Below, one piece after another: positions 1-13,250 of a DNA stretch of 13,250 nt. The translations under genes were made by a program, and so were the position numbers. The DNA lies in assembly GCA_043819795.1 (NCBI GenBank), contig JBDREN010000143.1:1-13250 (forward strand), written 5' to 3'. The notes beneath the pieces were generated by a model. The model worked only from the letters and a program-made list of their open reading frames with translations, did not search any database and had not been told where the DNA came from. Source of the stretch: Elusimicrobiota bacterium. Its GTDB lineage: Bacteria > Elusimicrobiota > Elusimicrobia > UBA1565. The stretch's first letter is position 1; each line of letters begins with the position of its first letter.

Positions 1-1
1 G

Positions 2-1120
2 GACGAGCGATTAGATTGCGCGGACTTACTCTCCGTCCCTGCAGGTCCGTCCGCCGTTGCCGTGGCCGTGGAGGGGGAGGGGGCGGACCTGAGCGCTTCG
101 GGCGAGGTGGCGGACCTGGCCGGGAACAACGCGTCAGCGACGCTCGGCGGGATCAGGATCGACCGGACCCCGCCGGTCATCACGGCCTCGAGCGCTCCCG
201 GCACGGGGCTGGAAGGCTGGAGCAACGGCGACGTGGAGGTGCGCTTCGAGTGCTCGGACGGGCTCTCCGGCCTGGACGGGCCGTGCCCTGTGGCCGTGGC
301 CGTGGACGGGGAGGGCGCGGACCTGAGCGCTTCTTCGGACGATGTCTAGGACTTGGCCGGGAAACGCGGGTCGGCGAGTCTGGAGGGGATCAAAATCGAC
401 CGGACGGCCCCGACCATCACTGCCTCGCGCTCGGCGGCCACGGGCCAGGACGGGTGGAGCAACGCGGATGTGACCGTGAGCTTCGAGTGCTCGGAGGGGC
501 TCTCCGGCCTGGCCGCGGCGTGCCCCGGTGCCGTGGCCGTGGACGGGGAGGGCGCGGACCTGAGCGCTTCGGGCGAGGTCGCCGACCTTGCCGGGAACAG
601 CGCGTCGGCGACGCTCGGCGGGATCAAAATCGACCGGACGGCCCCGGCGCTCGAGTACGCGGCGCAGGCCCCGGACGCCAACGGGGCGGGATGGAACAAG
701 ACGGACGTCGCGTTCGCCTTCACGACTTCCGACAACCTCTCGGGCGTGGCTTCGACGTCCATCGAGAGCCCGCTGATCCTGAGCGTGGAGGGCGGGGCCG
801 TGAGCGGCGAGGTGACGGTGACCGACGCGGCCGGCAACCCGGCCGCGTTCGCCTCGCCCGCGGTCAAGATCGACAAGACCGCGCCGACGCTCGCGTTCGC
901 GGAGCAGAGCCCGGCGGCCAACGGGGCGGGGTGGAACAACACGGACGTGTCGTTCACGTTCACCATCGCCGACGCCCTCTCGGGGGTGGCCTCGACGTCG
1001 GTCGAGAGTCCGCTGGTAATGAGCGCGGAGGGCGAGGGGGTGACCGGCGAGGTGACGGTCACCGACGCGGCCGATAATACGGGGGTGTTCGCTTCGCCCG
1101 CGGTCAGCATCGACAAGACC
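2..1120 (+). repeat. Tandem 234-240 bp (78-80 aa) Ig-like coding repeats, at least 5 units, two subtypes
   Basis: The IDRT/IDKT motif recurs at 158, 395, 629, 869 and 1109. The units ending at 395 and 629 carry a Cys pair (FECS.GLSGL...CP; degenerate in the partial first unit). The last two units lack Cys (GWN.TDV.F.FT..D.LSGVASTS.ESPL). Confidence 0.9.
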
Positions 1121-4100
1121 CCGCCGCAGATCGCCATCAGCACGCCCTCCGGCGGGCAGTCGGTGGCCACGCGCGACCCGATCGTGATCGGCTTCTCGGT
1201 GAGCGAGTTGGACCCGGCTCCCGCGATCACGGCGACGCTCACGCTGCTGCAGGCGGGAACCGGCGCTTCGGGGAAGGACGACGGCCCGATCGCGGTCTTC
1301 AACGGCCGGGTCCTCGAGCCTTTGGACCTGAGCGCGGGGACGTGGCGGCTGACGGTGAGCGCCACCGACCAGGCCGAGAACCCCGCCTACGCCGCCGGCG
1401 AGAGCTTCGAGGTCGTCCACGACATCCAGCCGCCGCGCACCGGCGTGGCGGTGGCCGAGCCCAGGTATCCGGACGCTTCGGAGCCTGAGCCGGCGCTGAT
1501 CTACGTGCGGGGGGATACGGAGCTGACGGCCTCGTCCATAGACGACTTGGTGGACGTGGGCGACGAGGACGGGCTGGGCGTGGAGCTTCAGGCGGTGAAG
1601 GTGGGCGGCAGCCAGCGCTTCAGCTGGGAGAACCCGAGCCCGGCGGTCGGACAGGTCTTCGCGAACAGCTTCACGCTCGACGATGCCGACGGGGCGCGGC
1701 TGAGCCTGGTGGCGGAGGCCGAGGACACGTTGGGCCGCGCGGAGACGGGCCGGGCGATGAGCCTGCAGATCGACGACAAGGCTCCGGTCGTGAGCCACGC
1801 GTTCGACGCGGCGCCGGTGGTGCGTCCGCCCAAGAACGAGGAGTGGTTCGCGGCGGACTTCCGGATCGTCTGGTCCGCGGAGGACGGCACGGGCTCGGGG
1901 GTGGCGTTTTTGAGCGGGCCGACGGACGTGGACTCGGAGGGCGGGGCCGTCCCCTACACGGGTCATGCCACCGACAACGTGGACAACCAGGGCAGCCTGA
2001 CGGTGGCGGTCAACCTGGACAAGACCGCGCCGGTGGTGGACGCGGGCGCGGACGTGACCGTGGAGGAGGGCGCGGAGCTGGGCTTCTCGGCCGGCGTGAC
2101 GGACAACCTCGACGACCAGCCGGAGTTCGGCTGGACCTTCGGGGACGGGGGCACGGCGGGCCAGGACCCGACGCCGAGCCACACCTACGCCGACGACGGC
2201 GTCTATGAGGCGAGGGTGAGCGCGACCGACCACGCGGGGCACCCCGCCTCGGATTCGCTGACGGTGACGGTGCTCAACGCGGCGCCGGTCGTGAGCGCGG
2301 GCGGCGATCAGGTCGCGGGAGCGGACGGGCTGTTGCGGATCGGCGGCGCGATCGCGCCGAGGAGGATGGACGCCCTGGACAACGGCGCTTTGGTCTCGCT
2401 GCCGATCGGGCCGGAGGCGCCCATCGTGGTGCCGGCGATCACCTTCGGCGACCTGGGCGCCTTGGACACGCACACGGCGACGATCGACTGGGGCGAGCCT
2501 CCGCCGGCGGAGCCGGAGGAGGTGCCCGTGGGCGCCGGCACGATCTCGGCCGAGCACCACTATGCGGCCAGCGGGGTCTACACGCTGCTCGCCACGGTAA
2601 CGGACAACGACGACGGGTCGGGCTCCGGCGGCTTCCAAGTAAAGGCGGACGCGGAGGCGCCCGAGACCGTGCTCTCGCACAGCGGGGACGTGAGCACGGA
2701 GGCGGGGATCCCGGCCGAGGCCGAGGTGTTCCTGGATGCGGACGCGATGAACGCGCTCAACGCGACCGACGCCGTGGTCGAGGACATCTCCGGCGTGCAG
2801 TGGACGTTCCGCAGGGATTTGACCATAGACGGCGAGAACTCGACGTTCACGCTGCACGCCGCGGCCTTCAACCTGGCGCAGGAGGGCCCGCACCGGCTGG
2901 AGTACTTCAGCGTGGACCTGCGCGGCAACGAGGAGGGCCACAAGTTCATCACGATCGGGGTGGACCACACGGCGTCCTCGTGCGCGCTGCACGTGGGCAA
3001 CCCGGTGAAGTACGAGTTCGACCAGGCCTACATCAGCCCCAAGACGGAGCTGACGCTGACGGCCTTCGACATCGAGTGGGCGGGCGTGGCGTCGGGGGTC
3101 AAGGAGATCCGGTACCGGATCGACGACGGGGCCGAGGTCGTGTATGAGACGCCCTTCCCGCTGCCGGAAGGGGTGCATACGGTGAGCTACTGGAGCGTGG
3201 ACAAGGTGGACAACGTCGAGGCCGAGGAGTCGATGCTGTTCAACGTGGGCAAGATCATGGACCGCCAGGCCACGGCCGGGGCGGGCAAGAAGAAGTCGAT
3301 CGACCTGCTGGGCACGGTCGAGATGACGGGCGACCTGGCGTCGAACGGGCCCTTGACGCTCAAGGGGACCGTGGTGATCAACGGCAGCGTGGTCGCGCCC
3401 GAGATCTCGGTGAACAAGAACAGCGGGATCACGGGGGAGCAGACGATCCAGGAGGATCCGCTTCACCCCGCGCCCTTCGACTTGGCGGCCGTCAAGGCGT
3501 ACGTGGAGGAGCACGACCTGGCCAAGAGCACGACGAACCCCATCGCCGCCTACCTCAACAAGAGCGGCGAGCTGGTGATGAACGGGCAGGCCAGCCTGAG
3601 GCTGCCCGCCGGCGACTATCTGCTCGCCGGCATCACGATGACCGGGGGCGCGGAGCTGACGATCGAGGGCAAGGTGGGCATCCTGGTGGAGGGTCCGATC
3701 GTGATCAACGCCTCGAACGTGAACGCGGGCGCGGAGGCTCCGGATTCGCTGAGCATCTTCAACAACCAGGAGACCACCATCGACCTGAAGGGGCAGGCGC
3801 GCCTGGCGGCGCTCGTCTACGCCCCGGACGCGACCACGAACTTCTCGGGGAGCGCTCGATACGGCGGGCGGCTCTTCACGGGCCACCTGACGATGAACGG
3901 GAGCGGCATCGCGCTCTCGGACGCGGCTCCCAAGGCGTACGCGGCGGAGCCGAGCGAAGAGACGGGCAAGGGCGGCAAAGCGGCCTCGGCCGGGCTGGCG
4001 GCGGAGGGCGCCGACCCGAGCTTCGCGCTGCGCGAAGCGTACGTGTTCCCGAACCCGGCGGCGGGCGGGGCGCGGCCGGTGATCCACGCGGCGGTGGGGA

Positions 4101-4330
4101 TCGCGGACAAGGTGACGCTCCGCATCTACAACCTCGCGGGCCAGCAGGCGCACCAAGCGACGCTCGAGGGCGCGCCGCCCGTGATCGACGACGGGAGCGG
4201 GCCCAAGTATGCCTACGAGTTCGTGTGGGACGGCCGGATCCCGAGCGGCGTGTACCTGTACACGATCGTGGCGGAGAAATCCGGGGAGGCGTCCATCCGC
4301 AAGGCCGGCAAGCTGGCCGTGGTGCGTTGA
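2..4330 (+). CDS. Giant secreted/surface protein, 5'-truncated by the window: tandem Ig-like repeats, two PKD domains, OmpL47-type Ig-like modules, beta-helix-like domain, C-terminal T9SS-sorting/FlgD-Ig-like domain; one in-frame TAG at 347-349
   Basis: Frame +2 is open from base 2 to TAG 347-349 and continues in the same frame to TGA 4328-4330 (ORF track 62..349 and 353..4330), with the repeat register kept across the stop. PKD signatures: FGWTFGDG...HTYADDGVY (~2020-2280) and IDWGE...HHYAASGVY (~2280-2650). SGVKEIRYRIDDG...HTVSYWSVDKVDNVE module (~2970-3250). Gly-rich beta-helix-like region with ALVYAPDA (~3295-3920). C-terminal VFPNP...LRIYNLAGQ...WDG...SGVYLY...KLAVVR. Confidence 0.88.
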
Positions 4331-4909: not shown

Positions 4910-4959
4910 GGTAGTCGCCCATATCCCGGGCATCCTATTAGTGAATGAAGAGGAGGAAC

Positions 4960-6756
4960 ATGGATACCTTTTTCTCTCCGCCACGCCACAGACTCCTGAG
5001 CCTGGGGGCCGCCTGCACGATGCTGGGGACGGCCCTGTTCATGGGCTTGGGAGCGGGGGCTCATCGGGCGCTGGCCGCCTCCGTGCAGGTGACCCAGCCC
5101 GTCTCCGGCGCTCAGCCCGCGGCGGCGGGCGTCTCGGGCGCCGGGCTCAATCAGGCGGCGGCGATCAGGCAGCGGTCCCGCCGTCTCTCGGCGCCGGGGC
5201 TGAATTCCGTCCTGCCCGGGAACGTCTCCTTCGAGCTGAAGCCCGTCATCCCGGCGAAGTCCGCTCCCTCGGCGAGCCTCGCGGAAGGGATCGGGGCGAA
5301 GACGGCTCCGCCGGGCGCGCCGGGACTAACCGCCGCGCCACAGTCCCAGCCCCATTCCGGAGGGGACCGGGCACTGCGGACCTCCCAATCGGACGACGCC
5401 CGGACAGCCGCCGCCGAGGGTACCGCAAAGCCCGCTGAGGGCAAAAAAGCCCGCGTCTTGGGGATGCTGAAGCAGGCGCAGGCGATCTTCTCGAAGAGAA
5501 TAAAGGACGATTCACGGGGGCATCAGGAAGACCTCGCGGAGCAGAGCCGGCTCTACGACGGCGGCAAGGCCTTCGGGCCGCGAACCGAAGACGCCGTCGC
5601 GACTTCGGAGAGGGCCGGGGCGGCGGACCTGCCGCAGGGATGGAGACTGCGTGCGATGGAGCCCGGCCGGCTCGAGTCCCGCGCCCCCCTGGCCGCGAGA
5701 CCGGCGCGCCAGAGCATCGCCTACGCCCCGGGCATCGACGGGACGAGGACCCCCGTGCTCGACATCACCCATCCGGAGATGGCGCCCGCCTACCGCTTCG
5801 ATGATCCGCTGCTGGGCTGGAAATCCATCCTATTGCTCAAGGCCATCCAGGCGCTCCCCGGAAGCCTGCGCGAGGCCATCGCCAGAAGGTCCGCCATCCT
5901 GGCCGATTTCATAGGCAAGCGCGAATACCTCAACGGATTCTCGACCTATCTGGCCAAGCTCGGCAAGCGCCATGTCCCCGGAGGGATCTTCGACAAGCTG
6001 GCCACGGGCAGCAAGCACGCCGTCGCCGTCGTCTACCGCCTGAGGGACTTCACCGACCAGCACGCCGGCGCGCTGGCGGAAGCGGTCCGGCGCAACCCCC
6101 GGGCGGACACCATCCGCTTCGTCAACATCGCGGGCGGACCGGCGCCGGACAGCATCAACACCGTCCTGAAGGTCCTGGCGGATCCGGCCCGCGCCGGTTC
6201 GCTCGCCGGCAAGAAGATCCGCATCGCGGTCTTCGACTTCAACACCGACGGCCCGGCTTTCGGCAAGAGGAGCGTGGCGGCCCTGAAGCGGCCCGGGATG
6301 AAGCTCGAAGACGTGGACATCGAGCTTGAGCACATCCCTTACGACTGGAACGATCCGTCCGCCATGGCCTCCCGGGTCCGGCAGTGGAAGCGGGAAGGGG
6401 ACATCCTCGTGGGAGGCACCGAAGGGGGCCTCATGGAATACGGCTCCGACGAGGCGATCTCGCGCAACCTGCGGGCCCTGCACGAGACCACTCCCGAGGA
6501 CTTCCGCTTCACCTTCTCGAACTACAAGAGCCGCGACGAGATCCATCCCGCGGTGACGGAGATGCTGAAGATCGCCGACATGGGGTGGCAGCTTCGCGGC
6601 CAGAACGGCGGCAAAGACGCCCGGGGCCGGACGCTCAAGGGCATCCGCCGGCTGGTCGAGGAGAACGGCTGGGTCGTCGAGACGAGCGTCACGGGCCGGG
6701 ACATATTCGACGTCCTGACCATCCGCAAGGCGGACGCCCCCCCCCTCAGAGCATGA
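4960..6756 (+). CDS. Predicted exported protein: signal peptide, Ala/Pro-rich linker and C-terminal class I SAM-methyltransferase-like domain (function unknown)
   Basis: ORF 4945..6756; ATG 4960 preferred because gaagaggagg lies just upstream. Hydrophobic N-terminus ending in ALA. ~210 aa low-complexity segment. Globular domain from ~5722 with Rossmann-like motifs FVNIAGGPAPDS, IAVFDFNTDG, YDWND and TEGGLMEYGSD. Confidence 0.8.
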   Translation: MDTFFSPPRHRLLSLGAACTMLGTALFMGLGAGAHRALAASVQVTQPVSGAQPAAAGVSGAGLNQAAAIRQRSRRLSAPGLNSVLPGNVSFELKPVIPAKSAPSASLAEGIGAKTAPPGAPGLTAAPQSQPHSGGDRALRTSQSDDARTAAAEGTAKPAEGKKARVLGMLKQAQAIFSKRIKDDSRGHQEDLAEQSRLYDGGKAFGPRTEDAVATSERAGAADLPQGWRLRAMEPGRLESRAPLAARPARQSIAYAPGIDGTRTPVLDITHPEMAPAYRFDDPLLGWKSILLLKAIQALPGSLREAIARRSAILADFIGKREYLNGFSTYLAKLGKRHVPGGIFDKLATGSKHAVAVVYRLRDFTDQHAGALAEAVRRNPRADTIRFVNIAGGPAPDSINTVLKVLADPARAGSLAGKKIRIAVFDFNTDGPAFGKRSVAALKRPGMKLEDVDIELEHIPYDWNDPSAMASRVRQWKREGDILVGGTEGGLMEYGSDEAISRNLRALHETTPEDFRFTFSNYKSRDEIHPAVTEMLKIADMGWQLRGQNGGKDARGRTLKGIRRLVEENGWVVETSVTGRDIFDVLTIRKADAPPLRA

Positions 6757-7665: not shown

Positions 7666-8442
7666 ATGACACCGCTGAAAGCGACCCTTTTCGGGTGCCT
7701 GGCCTTTTCTCTGGCCCTCGGGGGAGCCCCGGCGCGCGCGGCCGAACCTCCGTCCAGTCCGGAAGCCGGGAGCGAGCCCTCCGTTTTCGACGAGTTCGAG
7801 GATGAATTCGAGTTCGACGCGGACGGGGCGGAGCCGAAAAAGGTGTTCGATCCTCTCCGCGGCTACAACCGGTTCATGTTCAAGGTGAACGACAAGCTCT
7901 TTTACTGGCTCCTGAAGCCGGCGGGCAAGGCCTACGCGAAAGTCGTGCCCGAGCAGGCCCGGACAGCCTTCGGCCGAGCCTTCCACAACCTCCACTTCGG
8001 CCTGCGTTTCTCCAGCTCTTTGCTGCAGCTCAAGTTCAAGAAGGCCGGGACCGAGCTGGGCCGCTTCGTCGTCAACTCCACGGTCGGCGTCGGCGGCCTC
8101 TTCGACCCCGCGGACAAGCTCCTGCATTGGCGGACGACCGACGAGGACTTCGGCCAGATGCTCGGCCACTACGGAGTGGGCGGCGGCTTCCCGGTCGTCC
8201 TTCCCGTGATCGGGCAGACCAACCTGCGCGACGGCCTCGGGATGGTGCCCAACTATCTGCTGAACCCCGTGACCTACGTGGCCGACTTCCAAACCAACTT
8301 CATGGTGGGGGCCGGCGAGCACTTCAATTTCGCGTCCCTGCATCTCGACGAGTACGAAGCCATCAAGAAGGACGCGCTGGACCCGTACACCTTCCTACGG
8401 GACGCCTATAAACAGCATCGGGACAAGAAGATCAAGGAGTAG
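7666..8442 (+). CDS. mlaA: MlaA/VacJ family outer-membrane lipid asymmetry protein
   Basis: DPLRGYNRFMFKVNDKL, RFVVNSTVGVGGLFDPA, EDFGQMLGHYGVGGG..VVLPVIG..NLRD and DPYTFLRDAY are hallmark VacJ motifs; N-terminal signal peptide. Confidence 0.93.
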   Translation: MTPLKATLFGCLAFSLALGGAPARAAEPPSSPEAGSEPSVFDEFEDEFEFDADGAEPKKVFDPLRGYNRFMFKVNDKLFYWLLKPAGKAYAKVVPEQARTAFGRAFHNLHFGLRFSSSLLQLKFKKAGTELGRFVVNSTVGVGGLFDPADKLLHWRTTDEDFGQMLGHYGVGGGFPVVLPVIGQTNLRDGLGMVPNYLLNPVTYVADFQTNFMVGAGEHFNFASLHLDEYEAIKKDALDPYTFLRDAYKQHRDKKIKE

Positions 8443-8445
8443 GCC

Positions 8446-9147
8446 ATGAAGAGACTGCTGACATCCGCGCTGATCGCGCTCCTCCTCTGCCGGCCGGCTC
8501 CGGCCTTGGCCGATGACGACGAGAAGGCGGTGGACGCCCTCATCAAGGCCTCCGTGAACTCGGTCATGGAGATCCTCAAGGACGCGGATTTGGACAAGGA
8601 GGCGAAGAAGGAGCGGGTCATAGAGGTCGTGGACCCCTTGTTCGACCTGCCCCTCATCGCCAAGCTGGTCATGGGGCGCAATCAATGGGGGGCGATGGAC
8701 GAGCGCCAAAGGAAGGAGTTCGAGGACCTCTTCGTCAAGCAGGTGCGGGACTCCTACTTCGGCAAGGTGGACCTGCTCACCGACGAGAAGGTCGAGTTCG
8801 AGAAGCCCGTCAGGACGAAGAAGAAATTCACCATGCTCACGCGCATCCTCTCCAAGAACCAGCGCTATGAGATGCTCTACAAGCTGCACGACGATGCAGG
8901 GCGCTGGAAGGTCTACGACATGGAGATCGAGGGGATCAGCATCGTGAGGTCCTACCGGTCCCAGTACGAGCAGTTCCTCCAGAAAAGCTCGATCGACGAC
9001 CTCCTCAAGAAGATGAAGGGGAAGGTCCTGGAGCCTCCGAAGGAGCTGAAGGAAAAGCAGGACGAGATCAAGGCCAAGGCCGAGAAGGCCGAGGCCGAAA
9101 AGACGGAGAAGAAGCGGAAGAAGCCCTCCCCGGAGGATGGGGGCTGA
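8446..9147 (+). CDS. mlaC: MlaC/Ttg2D family periplasmic lipid-binding protein
   Basis: Signal peptide ending in ALA. FDLPLIAKLVMG..W, QRKEFEDLF and WKVYDMEIEGISIVRSYRSQY motifs. SD aaggag (8434-8439) inside the end of mlaA. Confidence 0.92.
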   Translation: MKRLLTSALIALLLCRPAPALADDDEKAVDALIKASVNSVMEILKDADLDKEAKKERVIEVVDPLFDLPLIAKLVMGRNQWGAMDERQRKEFEDLFVKQVRDSYFGKVDLLTDEKVEFEKPVRTKKKFTMLTRILSKNQRYEMLYKLHDDAGRWKVYDMEIEGISIVRSYRSQYEQFLQKSSIDDLLKKMKGKVLEPPKELKEKQDEIKAKAEKAEAEKTEKKRKKPSPEDGG

Positions 9148-9165
9148 CCGACCCCCGACTCCGGC

Positions 9166-11682
9166 ATGGCGGAGACGACCAACCCTTTCATCGGCCTCTA
9201 CGACCGGATCGTCCTCGAGCGGCCCAAGGCCGCCATCCTGACGCTGGTCGCCGTCTTCGCCTTCTTCGGCTACTGGGCCAAGGACTTCCGCCTCGACGCC
9301 TCGGGGGAGTCTCTGGTCCTGGAGCACGACGACGACGTCCGGTACTTCGCCGCGATCAACGACCGCTACCAGGGCGGCGATTTCATCATCATCACCTACT
9401 CCCCCCCCGAGGACCTCTTCTCCAAGGAGTCCCTCGACCGGCTCGGGCGCCTGCGCGACGAGCTCAGAAAGCTGGATCGGGTCTCGTCGGTCGTCACCTT
9501 GCTGGACGTGCCGCTGCTCAAGAACCCGCCCGGGACGCTCAAGGAGCTCAAGGACAACATCAAGACCCTGGAATCGCCGGACGCGGACATGGGCCTGGCC
9601 GTCGCGGAGTTCCGCGACAGCGATCTCTACCGCAACCTCCTGGTCAGCCCCGACCTCAAGGCCACCGCCCTGCTGGTCAACTTCCGGATGGACAAGGGCA
9701 GCACGGAGCTCCTGTCGCGCCGCTCCAAGCTGCGCGAGAAGGACTATGACGGCAGCCTGACGCCGGCCGAGCGCGAGGAGCTCGAGGCCCTGGAGGTCGA
9801 GTTCCGGCGCGACAAGGACCGGCGGCGGGCGGGGTGGCACGAGGACATCGCCGCCATCCGGGCGCTGATCGCGGGGGACCGCTCCGGCGCGCGCCTCTTC
9901 CTGGGCGGCGTGCCCATGATCGTCGACGACATCATCTCGTTCATCAAGAACGACCTGAAGGTGTTCGGCCTCGGGATGCTGTGCTTCCTGATCCTGACCT
10001 TGGGGGTCATCTTCAAGCGCAAGAGATGGGTCGTCCTGCCGATGCTGTGCTGCTCGCTCTCGGTGCTCACGCTCATGGGCATCCTGGGGCTGAGCACCTG
10101 GGACGTGACCGTCGTGTCATCCAACTTCATCTCGCTCCAGCTCATCTTCACGATGTCGCTGGCGATCCACATCGTCGTGCGCTACCGCGAGCTCCTGCGC
10201 TGGACGCCCGACGCGCCCAACCGCGACATCGTGCGGGACGCCGTCCGCCTCACCTTCGTCCCCTGTCTCTACGCGATCCTGACGACGATCGCCGGCTTCT
10301 GCTCTCTGGTCATCTGCGACATCCTGCCGGTCGTCAACTTCGGCTGGATGATGACGATGGGGCTCTGCGTGTCCATGATCGTGACCTTCCTGCTCCTGCC
10401 GGCGGGGCTCATGCTGATGAAGAAGCCGCCGCCCGCCAGCGAGAAGGCCTTCGGCCTGCCGCTCACCTCCTTCTTCGCCCGCCTCACCGAGAGGCACGGA
10501 GCCGCGATCGTCGCCGCGAGCCTGGCCATCGCCGTCGTCACGGCCTTCGGCATCACGCGGCTGGAGGTGGAGAACAGCTTCATCGACTATTTCAAGAAAT
10601 CCACCGACATCTACAAAGGGATGAAGTTCATCGACCAGGAGCTGGGGGGCACGACGCCGCTCGAGGTCATGATCGATTTCGCCCCGGAAGCCTCCGCCGA
10701 GCCGGAGCCCGCCCCCCCTCCGGACGAGGCCTTCGACGAGGACTTCGACGAGTTCGCGGAGTTCGAGGAGAAGTCCGCGGAGGACGCGGAGAAGTACTGG
10801 TTCACGACCGGGAAGCTCGAGGTGGTGAACAAGGTCCACGACTACCTCGACGGGCTTCCCGCCACCGGGAAGGTCATGTCTTTGGCCACGCTGTGGAAGA
10901 CGACGCGCGATCTCAACGAGGGCAAGCCCTTCGACGATTTCGCCCTGGCGATCCTGTTCAACCAGATGCCGGAGGAGCATAAGGACATCCTGGTGAACCC
11001 CTACGTCTCGATCGAGCACGACCAGGCGAGGATCACGGCCCGCATCAAGGACTCGATGCGGGACCTGCGGCGCGACCCCCTCATCAAGAAGATCCGCGCG
11101 GACCTTCGCGGAAAGCTCGGCCTCAAGGAGGACCAGTTCCGCGTGACGGGTCTGATGGTCCTCTACAACAACATGCTCCAGAGCCTGTTCCGCTCCCAGA
11201 TCCAGACCGTCGGATTCACCGTCCTGGCGCTCATGGCCATGTTCATGATCCTCTTCCGCTCGATCAAGATCTCGCTCATCGCCATCTTCCCGAACCTGCT
11301 CTCGTCGATGATCGTGCTCGGCGTGATGGGCCTCGCCCGGATCCCCCTGGACATCATGACGATCACGATCGTGGCCATCAGCGTGGGCATCGCCGTGGAC
11401 AACACGATCCACTACCTGCACCGCTTCCGGCGCGAGATCACGAAAGACTGGGACTACCTGAAAGCCATGCATCGCTGCCACGGCAGCATCGGCAACGCCA
11501 TGTTCTACACGTCTCTGTCCATCACCATCGGGTTCTCCATCCTGGGGTTCTCGAACTTCATCCCCACGATCCTCTTCGGCCTGCTGGCCGCCCTCGCGAT
11601 GGCGATGGCCTTGGTCGCGGCCCTGAGCCTACTGCCCAAGCTCATCATGTTCTTCAAGCCCTTCGGCACCGGAAAAACCTAG
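9166..11682 (+). CDS. MMPL/RND superfamily membrane transporter (HpnN/YdfJ-like), likely lipid transport
   Basis: 838 aa with a duplicated (TM + periplasmic domain + ~5 TM) architecture. LGGVPMI, LTTIAGFCSL, LGGTTPLEV, GIAVDNTIHYLHRF and GFSILGFSNFIPT motifs. Operonic with mlaA and mlaC. Confidence 0.92.
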   Translation: MAETTNPFIGLYDRIVLERPKAAILTLVAVFAFFGYWAKDFRLDASGESLVLEHDDDVRYFAAINDRYQGGDFIIITYSPPEDLFSKESLDRLGRLRDELRKLDRVSSVVTLLDVPLLKNPPGTLKELKDNIKTLESPDADMGLAVAEFRDSDLYRNLLVSPDLKATALLVNFRMDKGSTELLSRRSKLREKDYDGSLTPAEREELEALEVEFRRDKDRRRAGWHEDIAAIRALIAGDRSGARLFLGGVPMIVDDIISFIKNDLKVFGLGMLCFLILTLGVIFKRKRWVVLPMLCCSLSVLTLMGILGLSTWDVTVVSSNFISLQLIFTMSLAIHIVVRYRELLRWTPDAPNRDIVRDAVRLTFVPCLYAILTTIAGFCSLVICDILPVVNFGWMMTMGLCVSMIVTFLLLPAGLMLMKKPPPASEKAFGLPLTSFFARLTERHGAAIVAASLAIAVVTAFGITRLEVENSFIDYFKKSTDIYKGMKFIDQELGGTTPLEVMIDFAPEASAEPEPAPPPDEAFDEDFDEFAEFEEKSAEDAEKYWFTTGKLEVVNKVHDYLDGLPATGKVMSLATLWKTTRDLNEGKPFDDFALAILFNQMPEEHKDILVNPYVSIEHDQARITARIKDSMRDLRRDPLIKKIRADLRGKLGLKEDQFRVTGLMVLYNNMLQSLFRSQIQTVGFTVLALMAMFMILFRSIKISLIAIFPNLLSSMIVLGVMGLARIPLDIMTITIVAISVGIAVDNTIHYLHRFRREITKDWDYLKAMHRCHGSIGNAMFYTSLSITIGFSILGFSNFIPTILFGLLAALAMAMALVAALSLLPKLIMFFKPFGTGKT

Positions 11683-11829: not shown

Positions 11830-13041
11830 ATGTCGACTACGGGTCCCAAACGGCCGCACGCGAAAGCCGCTCATGCCGAGCGCCCGGGGAGCGCCGCGGA
11901 GCGCGTCCCCCGCCGCGAACCGGCGGGCGCGGGCCCACGCCGCATCCGGCGCCCTCCCGAGAGCATCCTCATCATCGAAGACGACCCCTCCATGCTATCG
12001 GTGGTGACGCGGGCCCTGGACTCCCCCCGCCGCGGGATCCTGGCCGCCGAGAGCGCGGACGAGGCGCTCGTATTCCTGGACGAGCAGGATTTCGACCTGG
12101 TCATCACCGACGTGGTCATGCCGGGCGGCATGGACGGCCGTGGCCTCTTCCGCTGGGTCAGGGAGCACCGGCCGAACACGGACACGATCCTGGTCTCGGG
12201 CTTCCCCAGCATAGAGGGCGTCCTCGAAGCATTCCGCCACGGGGCGTGGGACTACCTGGTCAAGCCCCTGGACCTGGGCGGGCTGGAGAGCACGGTCTTG
12301 CGCTGCATCCAGCGGCGCCGGGCGGAGGACGACATGGCGGACGAGGTCTCCGTGCGGACCTCCCTGAGGAAGGCCTACCGCGAGCTCAACGCCATGGACG
12401 GCATGCGGGACGCTCTGCGGCGCTATCTGGCCAAGGAGGTGGCGGACAAGGTCATGTTCTCGCCGCACGCCGCCCTGAAGGGCGAGAGGATAATCGCCAC
12501 CATGCTTTTCGCCGACATCCGGGGTTTCACGACCTTCGCCGAGTCCCACCCTCCCGAGGAGGCGGTCGCCGTCCTGAACTCCCTGTTCGAGCGCTTCAAC
12601 GCGGTCGTCAAACGGCGGCTGGGCGTCGTCAATAAGTACACCGGCGACGGCCTGATGGCGATCTTCGGGGCGCTCCAAGCCGTGAAGGACCACGCCCAAC
12701 GGGCGGCCCTCTGCGCCTTGGATATGATCGACGAGACCGCCGAGTGGAACGAGCGGCGGCGCGCCGAAGGGCGCCTCCCGCTGGACATAGGGATCGGCAT
12801 CAATACGGGGGAGGTGGTGGCGGGCAGCATCGGGACCTTTGAGCGCAGCGAGTACACCGTGGTGGGGTCGGCGGTGAACCTGGCCGAGCGTCTCGAGCAC
12901 CACGCCGCCCCCGGGCAGATCCTCGTCGGGCCTGGATCCGTACCGGCCCTGAGCCGGAGCTTCCGTCTGCGCTTCCTCGGCTCGGACTGGTTCAAGGGAT
13001 TCTCCCGCCCCAGCCGCGTCTACGAGCTCTCCCGACTATAA
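11830..13041 (+). CDS. Response-regulator receiver domain fused to class III nucleotide (probably adenylate) cyclase
   Basis: Receiver motifs IIEDD, ITDVVMPG, LVSG and YLVKP. Cyclase motifs LFADIRGFT, NKYTGDGLMAIFG, IGIGINTGEVVAG and EYTVVGSAVNLAERLE. The Lys plus Thr specificity pair is typical of class IIIb adenylyl cyclases. Confidence 0.95.
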   Translation: MSTTGPKRPHAKAAHAERPGSAAERVPRREPAGAGPRRIRRPPESILIIEDDPSMLSVVTRALDSPRRGILAAESADEALVFLDEQDFDLVITDVVMPGGMDGRGLFRWVREHRPNTDTILVSGFPSIEGVLEAFRHGAWDYLVKPLDLGGLESTVLRCIQRRRAEDDMADEVSVRTSLRKAYRELNAMDGMRDALRRYLAKEVADKVMFSPHAALKGERIIATMLFADIRGFTTFAESHPPEEAVAVLNSLFERFNAVVKRRLGVVNKYTGDGLMAIFGALQAVKDHAQRAALCALDMIDETAEWNERRRAEGRLPLDIGIGINTGEVVAGSIGTFERSEYTVVGSAVNLAERLEHHAAPGQILVGPGSVPALSRSFRLRFLGSDWFKGFSRPSRVYELSRL

Positions 13042-13047
13042 GACGGC

Positions 13048-13116
13048 GTCGGGCGTTGACTTTGTTAACTAATTCGCGACCACGATGAAAATTAGTTAAC
13101 AAAGTTAACGCCTGAT
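13048..13116. repeat. Long AT-rich REP-like inverted repeat
   Basis: ggcgttgactttgttaactaatt (13052-13074) / aattagttaacaaagttaacgcc (13090-13112): 22 of 23 pairs Watson-Crick, 15-nt loop. Extends to 13048/13116 with G-T pairs. Confidence 0.9.
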
Positions 13117-13250
13117 AATCATCTAGAGGTCCCCTCCCGCAGGTTGTATTGTTTCGTTGCGAGACGAACATTCCAACCCGAGGAGGGGACAGATGAAATT
13201 ATACGCAGGAATCGACCTGCATTCCAACAACAACGTGCTGGTGATCTTGG
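13116..13250 (+). mobile_element. Left end of an IS110-family insertion sequence (boundary inferred; continues beyond the window)
   Basis: Transposase start at 13193. A ~77-nt structured leader begins where the flanking palindrome loses symmetry (after CCTGA, 13115). GC content is lower than in the flanking genes. Confidence 0.7.
13193..13250 (+). CDS. IS110-family (DEDD RuvC-like) transposase/recombinase, N-terminal 19 codons only
   Basis: MKLYAGIDLHSNNNVLVIL carries the GIDLH first catalytic Asp motif of IS110 DEDD domains. Strong SD aggagg (13181-13186) 6 nt upstream of ATG 13193. The frame is open to the window end. Confidence 0.82.
   Translation, partial: MKLYAGIDLHSNNNVLVIL

Follow-up and report, generated by a model that had tools for sequence, protein, structure and literature searches.

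A putative RNA-guided IS110-family element with an IS1111-like layout, inserted in a TIRtron-type terminal repeat of an Elusimicrobiota genome

The window analysed here is the whole of contig C143, 13,250 nucleotides from an Elusimicrobiota genome of 67% GC, and the left end of an insertion sequence lies at its right edge. Positions 1-4330 encode a long, repetitive protein of surface type that matches PKD, Ig-like and DUF7305; an in-frame stop near 349 divides it from a similar frame extending beyond the start of the contig. A 603-amino-acid ORF at 4945-6756 has no Pfam match at E 0.01 and is convergent with an ORF that we labelled by eye as short-chain-dehydrogenase-like. One run of MlaA, MlaC and MMPL-family genes occupies 7666-11682. 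The host gene at 11830-13041 (plus strand; PF00072 and PF00211) encodes a response regulator / nucleotide cyclase, in which a receiver domain is joined to a nucleotide cyclase domain of class III, and points at the element, with the target palindrome directly downstream. Read-through into the element would come from this gene. The recombinase gene starts at ATG 13193 and reads MKLYAGIDLHSNNNVLVIL to the contig end. These are its first 19 codons (13193-13250, plus strand), and the start is shared with the copy on contig C120, whose product carries PF01548 and PF02371. Since the window is the entire contig, the remainder of this copy is unassembled; a break inside the gene is expected at a multicopy element. 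The preliminary description had located the gene start, the arms and loop of the leader hairpin and a GATAAT word, and every base and position that it gave is correct.

The genome holds eight left ends of the element and six matching right ends. The copies are of two variants, 86% identical over 1037 bases. Variant A comprises the copy in the window, two on C120 and one on C202, and 319 residues of its recombinase are assembled at C120; variant B has a full-length copy on C90 with a protein of 339 amino acids. The variant A right end used here was taken from C230, which overlaps C120 at 100% identity over 141 bases, and not from the window's own copy. At C142:10400-10797 a variant-A copy ends at the last codon of the recombinase and is followed by a TIR palindrome, the guide region being absent.

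The earlier assignment to the IS110 family holds for these other copies. Both PF01548 and PF02371 score over cut-off in the proteins of C90 (variant B) and C120 (variant A), and the variant B protein reaches 180.7 with NF033542 (cut-off 140) and has weak PDB matches to IS621 and ISCro4. All 16 aligned relatives have the residues D8, E55, D93 and D96 unchanged; S259, which aligns with the E-S-G serine of IS621, is kept in 15 of the 16. The aligned proteins share a C-terminal motif, RCVxSxxxSNG, and the IS1111 motif GL-P----S(t)G is absent. Relatives at 56% identity are annotated as 'ISGsu4 family transposase'. Judged from sequence, the element is an RNA-guided member of the IS110 family with an IS1111-like layout.

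The ends of the element can be read from its other copies and from empty sites. A TGA core (13113-13115, plus strand) is found at both ends of the integrated element, in 8/8 left and 6/6 right ends, and once in empty arms. Comparison with the right end identified a left subterminal inverted repeat (sTIR; 13119-13134, plus strand) with 11 perfect base pairs at 13124-13134, within the 11-13 bp of IS1111 elements, plus a TCAT that is offset by one base. Beyond CAT/ATG there are 9 bp in total; depending on where the core is cut, this would be compatible with the 6+3 form of the terminal extensions of IS1111 elements, which are 7+3 or 6+3 bp. The left non-coding end is short (77 nt) compared with the right one (422-423 nt), so that the long region lies downstream of the gene as in IS1111-type elements. 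It had been predicted that GATAAT (13114-13119, plus strand) would be the -10 half of a promoter assembled on circularisation, and joining the right end to the left end in silico indeed gives a candidate promoter of this kind, TTGACG-18 nt-GATAAT, with the -35 word coming from the right end. Among 50 homologue junctions (from the best 80 of 578 loci) the spacer is 15-18 nt and the -10 word is GATAAT in 28; the tally of -35 words across these junctions is partly circular, as the right-end finder demanded a TTG-like word. We found no promoter-like site on the plus strand at the left end of the integrated element. The contigs of four DNA runs contained no end-to-end circle joint, though such contigs cannot show absence. 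By analogy with the family, the element would excise as a circle that joins the right-end -35 to GATAAT, and the junction promoter would transcribe the leader, the recombinase and the right end, probably from a start near 13126.

Three features are missing from the preliminary description: the upstream palindrome as the target, a helix over the AUG and an antisense-promoter-like site. The palindrome (13045-13115; self-match, z -8.9) consists of two TIRtron-type terminal inverted repeat arms, with the insertion sequence in the tip of the right arm. Arms of this kind occur 116 times in the genome and three times in the reversed genome. TIRtrons, or TIRYT, are described as subclass 2.1 of the TnpA-REP group, with Y1 genes flanked by terminal inverted repeats (TIRs) that start with GGGGWSAS, and with dispersed single and dimeric TIR copies (PMC3733652, PMC6006769). 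In our genome such arms, 27-39 bp long and 856-909 nt apart, flank four of the six Y1-transposase loci examined. The GGGGWSAS motif is exact in one of the four TIR-flanked loci and differs at the third base in the other three, and most TIRs of the genome begin GG(C/T)GTCAG. At the C-terminus, where TIRtron transposases have a helix-turn-helix domain, the Y1 proteins carry an extension; a Pfam scan of one of these proteins gave no match at E 0.01. Because the arms bound Y1-transposase loci, the target fits TIRtrons; attC and REP sites were set aside as targets, since the repeats flank Y1 genes as terminal repeats. The sequence itself places the element at a TGA core, within the tip of TIRtron terminal repeats. 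Evidence of this link is less frequent in other genomes: the right flank is CCC in 32 of 48 cases, five of the 80 loci (the best of 578) have a Y1 gene close by and an inverted partner arm is present in 7 of 61. In five host genomes such repeats lie at 3 of the 11 Y1 loci that are not of IS200 type, and one host-genome Y1 repeat matches the flank of locus L030 over 16 bases.

The guide appears to lie in the right end, as the preliminary description had allowed in an aside. For the homologues we used the best 80 of 578 related loci. Their right ends contain a stem with a large internal loop that starts within about 10 nt of the stop codon. In 32 sequences, picked from 64 having the pattern, 94.5% of the cells of this stem are paired and 14 of its 17 pairs have changed on both sides, whereas shuffled and slid controls stay far below these values. 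The loop contains the right target flank in reverse complement on its 5' side and a copy of the left flank plus core on its 3' side; the top-strand match lies 5' of the bottom-strand match, as in IS1111 elements. In L005, L006, L007, L035 and L048 the right-flank match is 7/7 with five different flanks. The pattern-based finder overlooked the loop in 33 of 76 loci and placed it wrongly in about five (L020, L074, L075, L079 and L080), and an alignment-free test was used in its place. For 43 two-ended elements from the best 80 of 578 loci, each element's own flanks were matched to the 110 nt that follow the stop codon; the best matches scored 6.81 against 5.77 and 5.65 against 5.07 for permuted flanks, and 0 of 5000 permutations were as high in each comparison. 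The leaders of the same 43 elements gave 5.02 against 5.07 and 4.84 against 4.84, hence no target signal in either orientation. This fits the broad IS110 definition as far as computation goes, in that a non-coding end holds segments which match the target and change with it. Covariation shows two guide segments in the post-stop stem-loop, first the reverse complement of the right flank and then the left flank with the core.

A second motif lies about 265 nt after the stop codon, some 200 nt past the target loop, and copies the right donor end plus core. Of 43 elements, 34 have a complete copy and all 43 agree at position 4; seven have a wobble where the core begins, two differ at the last base, and three further elements lack the motif. 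In L005, L006, L007, L013, L036 and L040 the core is CGA while the donor motif has TGA, which implies that a U-G pair is tolerated in the first position of the core. The match of this motif to the right donor end is likewise a covarying one. Inspection of 54 elements by eye revealed no corresponding segment for the left donor end. When target and donor words of the window's element are compared with the leader and the right end, the leader agrees at 4-5 of 7-8 bases and the right end at 7/8 and 8/8. A model of the guide gives no score on 13043-13250, and among the 150 of 1574 candidates scored it found the two expected copies and no orphan guides. The two variants differ in their targets: the arms that hold variant A end in CGC (2/2 right ends), those that hold variant B end in CAC (4/4), and the guides of the two differ at this CGC/CAC base. 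Seven of the eight left flanks score higher with the guide of their own variant, with one tie. The relatives L005-L007 and L129 carry guides for unrelated targets.

The leader forms a hairpin (13129-13190, plus strand) in which the outer stem pairs an anti-SD arm (13129-13137) with the SD arm (13182-13190); further inside are the arms 13142-13146/13174-13178 and a GCGA loop at 13159-13162. The region 13116-13200 folds at -39.1 kcal/mol (z -6.2), and 0 of 200 shuffles were as stable. The claim that the outer stem sequesters the SD is supported by this fold and by pairing across homologue leaders. Of 71 distinct leaders (from the best 80 of 578 loci), 59 have z < -2, and the SD has an unpaired probability below 0.2 in 48, against 3 of 71 when the upstream leader is shuffled. 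CUCC:GGAG is paired in 93-99% of 69 leaders. Four further pairs next to it, of several types, are kept in 72% against 43% when permuted; the pairing register was set by the individual folds, and related sequences are not independent. In the RNAalifold consensus of 10 close leaders nothing but the SD stem of 9 bp remains, and it has 0 compensatory pairs. The inner stems and the loop vary across homologues. The GNRA loop was rejected as a conserved feature because it is kept in the two local variants only, and a single sub-threshold match to a microRNA hairpin in Rfam, on the minus strand, was taken as chance. As the anti-SD arm overlaps the sTIR, a constraint at the DNA level also shapes this arm; the CUCC that meets the SD lies at or past the inner edge of the sTIR.

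An extra predicted helix (13119-13124 with 13191-13196, spanning 13119-13196 on the plus strand) covers the AUG in transcripts that start upstream of the junction -10 only. The predicted unpaired probability of the AUG is 0.93 in the junction transcript and 0.001 in read-through RNA, and the predicted opening costs are 20-23 and about 25 kcal/mol, respectively. Opening the ribosome footprint costs 20.4 kcal/mol, a value reached or exceeded by 26 of 250 control host genes, which is high and not extreme. Five to six of the six pairs of the AUG-covering helix are present in 38 of 68 homologues; this count has no control and the complementarity of TCAT and ATGA is nearly automatic, hence it was not used as support. 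It had been suggested that the hairpin silences translation from read-through transcripts. The SD is indeed buried there, but the restriction to read-through RNA does not hold, since a junction transcript from near 13126 would keep the whole SD stem and silencing would extend to it as well. In the folding models the AUG-covering helix alone is specific to read-through RNA. The left hairpin would then bury the SD in every transcript, and read-through RNA would bury the AUG too.

Within codons 2-12 an antisense-promoter-like site, TTGGAA-18 nt-TATAAT, is found on the minus strand (13198-13227). Sites of this type occur in 38 of 71 homologue starts (from the best 80 of 578 loci); the controls have them in 24 of 1283 starts of host genes and in 20 of 1165 internal windows. 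Both synonymous positions on which the site depends show a bias: 48 of 51 sequences have A as the last base of codon 2 (16 expected) and the His10 codon is CAT in 40 of 51 (18.6 expected). Codons 5-7 are also enriched in A/T, and a general 5' codon bias therefore explains part of the signal. An antisense RNA from this site would probably start near 13191 and run over the SD and the hairpin. By covering the SD it would add a repression that rises with copy number, which we regard as the least certain step of the mechanism. Taken together, the clade-wide conservation of the anti-SD/SD stem and the antisense-promoter-like site make translational silencing of the recombinase the likely role of the hairpin.

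We consider it probable that the account as a whole is right, namely that the window holds the left end of an IS1111-like member of the IS110 family, targeted to TIRtrons, with a guide in the right end, a hairpin that buries the SD and antisense repression. A different view of the hairpin and the antisense RNA is that they form an activating switch, in which the antisense RNA would unfold the leader and so make the ribosome site accessible. The model for this is ISPpu9, for which a structured leader and an antisense promoter within the first eight codons are described, and the printed -35 region of which contains the same hexamer as here (PMC8450116). The geometry differs, however. The antisense -10 of ISPpu9 is reported to overlap the ribosome site, so that its antisense RNA starts upstream of that site (PMC8450116); here the -10 lies in codons 2-4, and the antisense RNA would itself cover the SD. 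Repression of the IS10/IS200 kind is therefore to be expected more than activation of the ISPpu9 kind, and we think the activating switch unlikely.

The hairpin might also have no regulatory role at all: the sTIR, a G-rich SD and high GC could give rise to it as a side effect, or it could act as a DNA structure at the end. Such an origin would suit an opening energy near the 90th percentile of host genes, a 5' arm that doubles as the sTIR and the lack of a compensatory pair in the 10 close relatives. It is harder to reconcile with the low z values in 59 of the 71 leaders, with two arms that change together across the wider clade and with the position of the SD-meeting CUCC at or beyond the inner edge of the sTIR, and we judge it quite improbable. 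The original proposal that the left hairpin is part of the guide fares worst. In its favour, or in favour of the variant in which the hairpin supplies the missing donor-binding segment in a round-the-circle transcript, one can say that the hairpin is very stable, that it would be transcribed from the junction promoter and that no left-donor-end segment was found in the right end. But the 43 leaders do not track the target, the matches of target and donor words in the window's leader fall short of those in the right end, the guide model scores nothing across the left end (13043-13250), the inner stems and the GNRA loop vary freely, and the guide loops follow the stop codon. We regard a guide function of the hairpin as very improbable, and translational silencing remains our preferred reading.

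The layout with a guide downstream of the gene is that described for IS1111 elements (PMC11187229, PMC11208160). With ISEc11, ISKpn4 and ISPa11, which have IS1111-type seekRNAs, our element shares the short left end, the sTIRs, the junction promoter, the long non-coding region after the gene with the top-strand match 5' of the bottom-strand match, the 339-aa protein and natural reprogramming among relatives, as far as these are described in PMC11187229. It differs from what that paper describes in the motif RCVxSxxxSNG in place of GL-P----S(t)G, in a separate donor-end motif and in its target. ISGsu4 is given as 'IS110' in the source data of one paper, where its protein is 15-23% identical to the 160 entries listed, including IS1111A, ISEc11 and IS110; its protein sequence in a supplement has motifs that are, by eye, similar to those of the present element. 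Searching main texts for the name ISGsu4 gave one paper, which by its listing deals with another subject. Because the IS1111 C-terminal motif is absent and ISGsu4 is listed as IS110, we describe the element as working like IS1111 without filing it there. IS621 and ISCro4, in the account of PMC11208160, share with it the DEDD and serine domains, the shared core and loops that match target and donor. Their RNA lies in a long left end, while here a guide was found in the right end and not in the left, the order of the target segments is reversed, and one covarying donor segment was found rather than both (PMC11208160).

Insertion in the terminal inverted repeats of another mobile element is also reported for the IS1111 members IS4321 and IS5075, which target Tn21-family repeats and not those of TIRtrons. 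For ISPpu10, the structure of the target is reported to play a part. We did not find an insertion sequence aimed at TIRtron repeats in the open-access literature; target logos in the supplements or repository of PMC11208160 and PMC11187229 might show one. With regard to regulation, ISPpu9 of the IS110 group and its RNA Asr9 likewise combine a leader structure that buries the ribosome site with an antisense RNA against the leader; the ISPpu9 leader is given as 244 nt and the RNA as activating (PMC8450116), whereas our leader is about 67 nt and the geometry predicts repression. A buried ribosome site with an antisense RNA is described for IS200 (art200) and IS10 (RNA-OUT) as well, whose transposases are unrelated (PMC4513863). 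In the open-access literature text we found no such leader and antisense arrangement in an element with a downstream guide.

The family and all the principles involved have been published before, and what the locus adds is a precisely bounded element with a compact target loop of about 75 nt and dozens of natural guide/target pairs, on a branch far removed from those bridge and seek systems that have been studied. It also offers a testable account of how recombinase translation may be limited in elements with a downstream guide. With less than even confidence, we further propose that a widespread and deep-branching ISGsu4-related clade, filed as IS110 and built like IS1111, is a hyperparasite specialised on TIRtrons. 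Its guide would read the conserved tip of the repeats and be re-tuned as subfamilies diverge, the recombinase would be held down by an anti-SD hairpin common to the clade and a repressive antisense RNA encoded in codons 2-12, and the donor loop would base-pair with one end only and leave the other to the sTIR. The two variants in one genome, with different guides that match different repeat subfamilies, would be an instance of such re-tuning.

Some loci of the genome show target arms in other arrangements. At L001 (1110-1140 and 1395-1420; G000:C90 near 48070-48380) a Y1-type C-terminal gene fragment lies between inverted target arms, one of which carries the full insertion sequence and the other seven left-end bases abutting an inverted, degenerate right end. 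This stub looks like the scar of an inversion or of a failed recombination. Target-type arms 2-5 kb apart, inverted or in tandem, are found at G000:C48:9326-13324 and C230:44328-48960, and these pairs could bound TIRtron derivatives that carry passenger genes.
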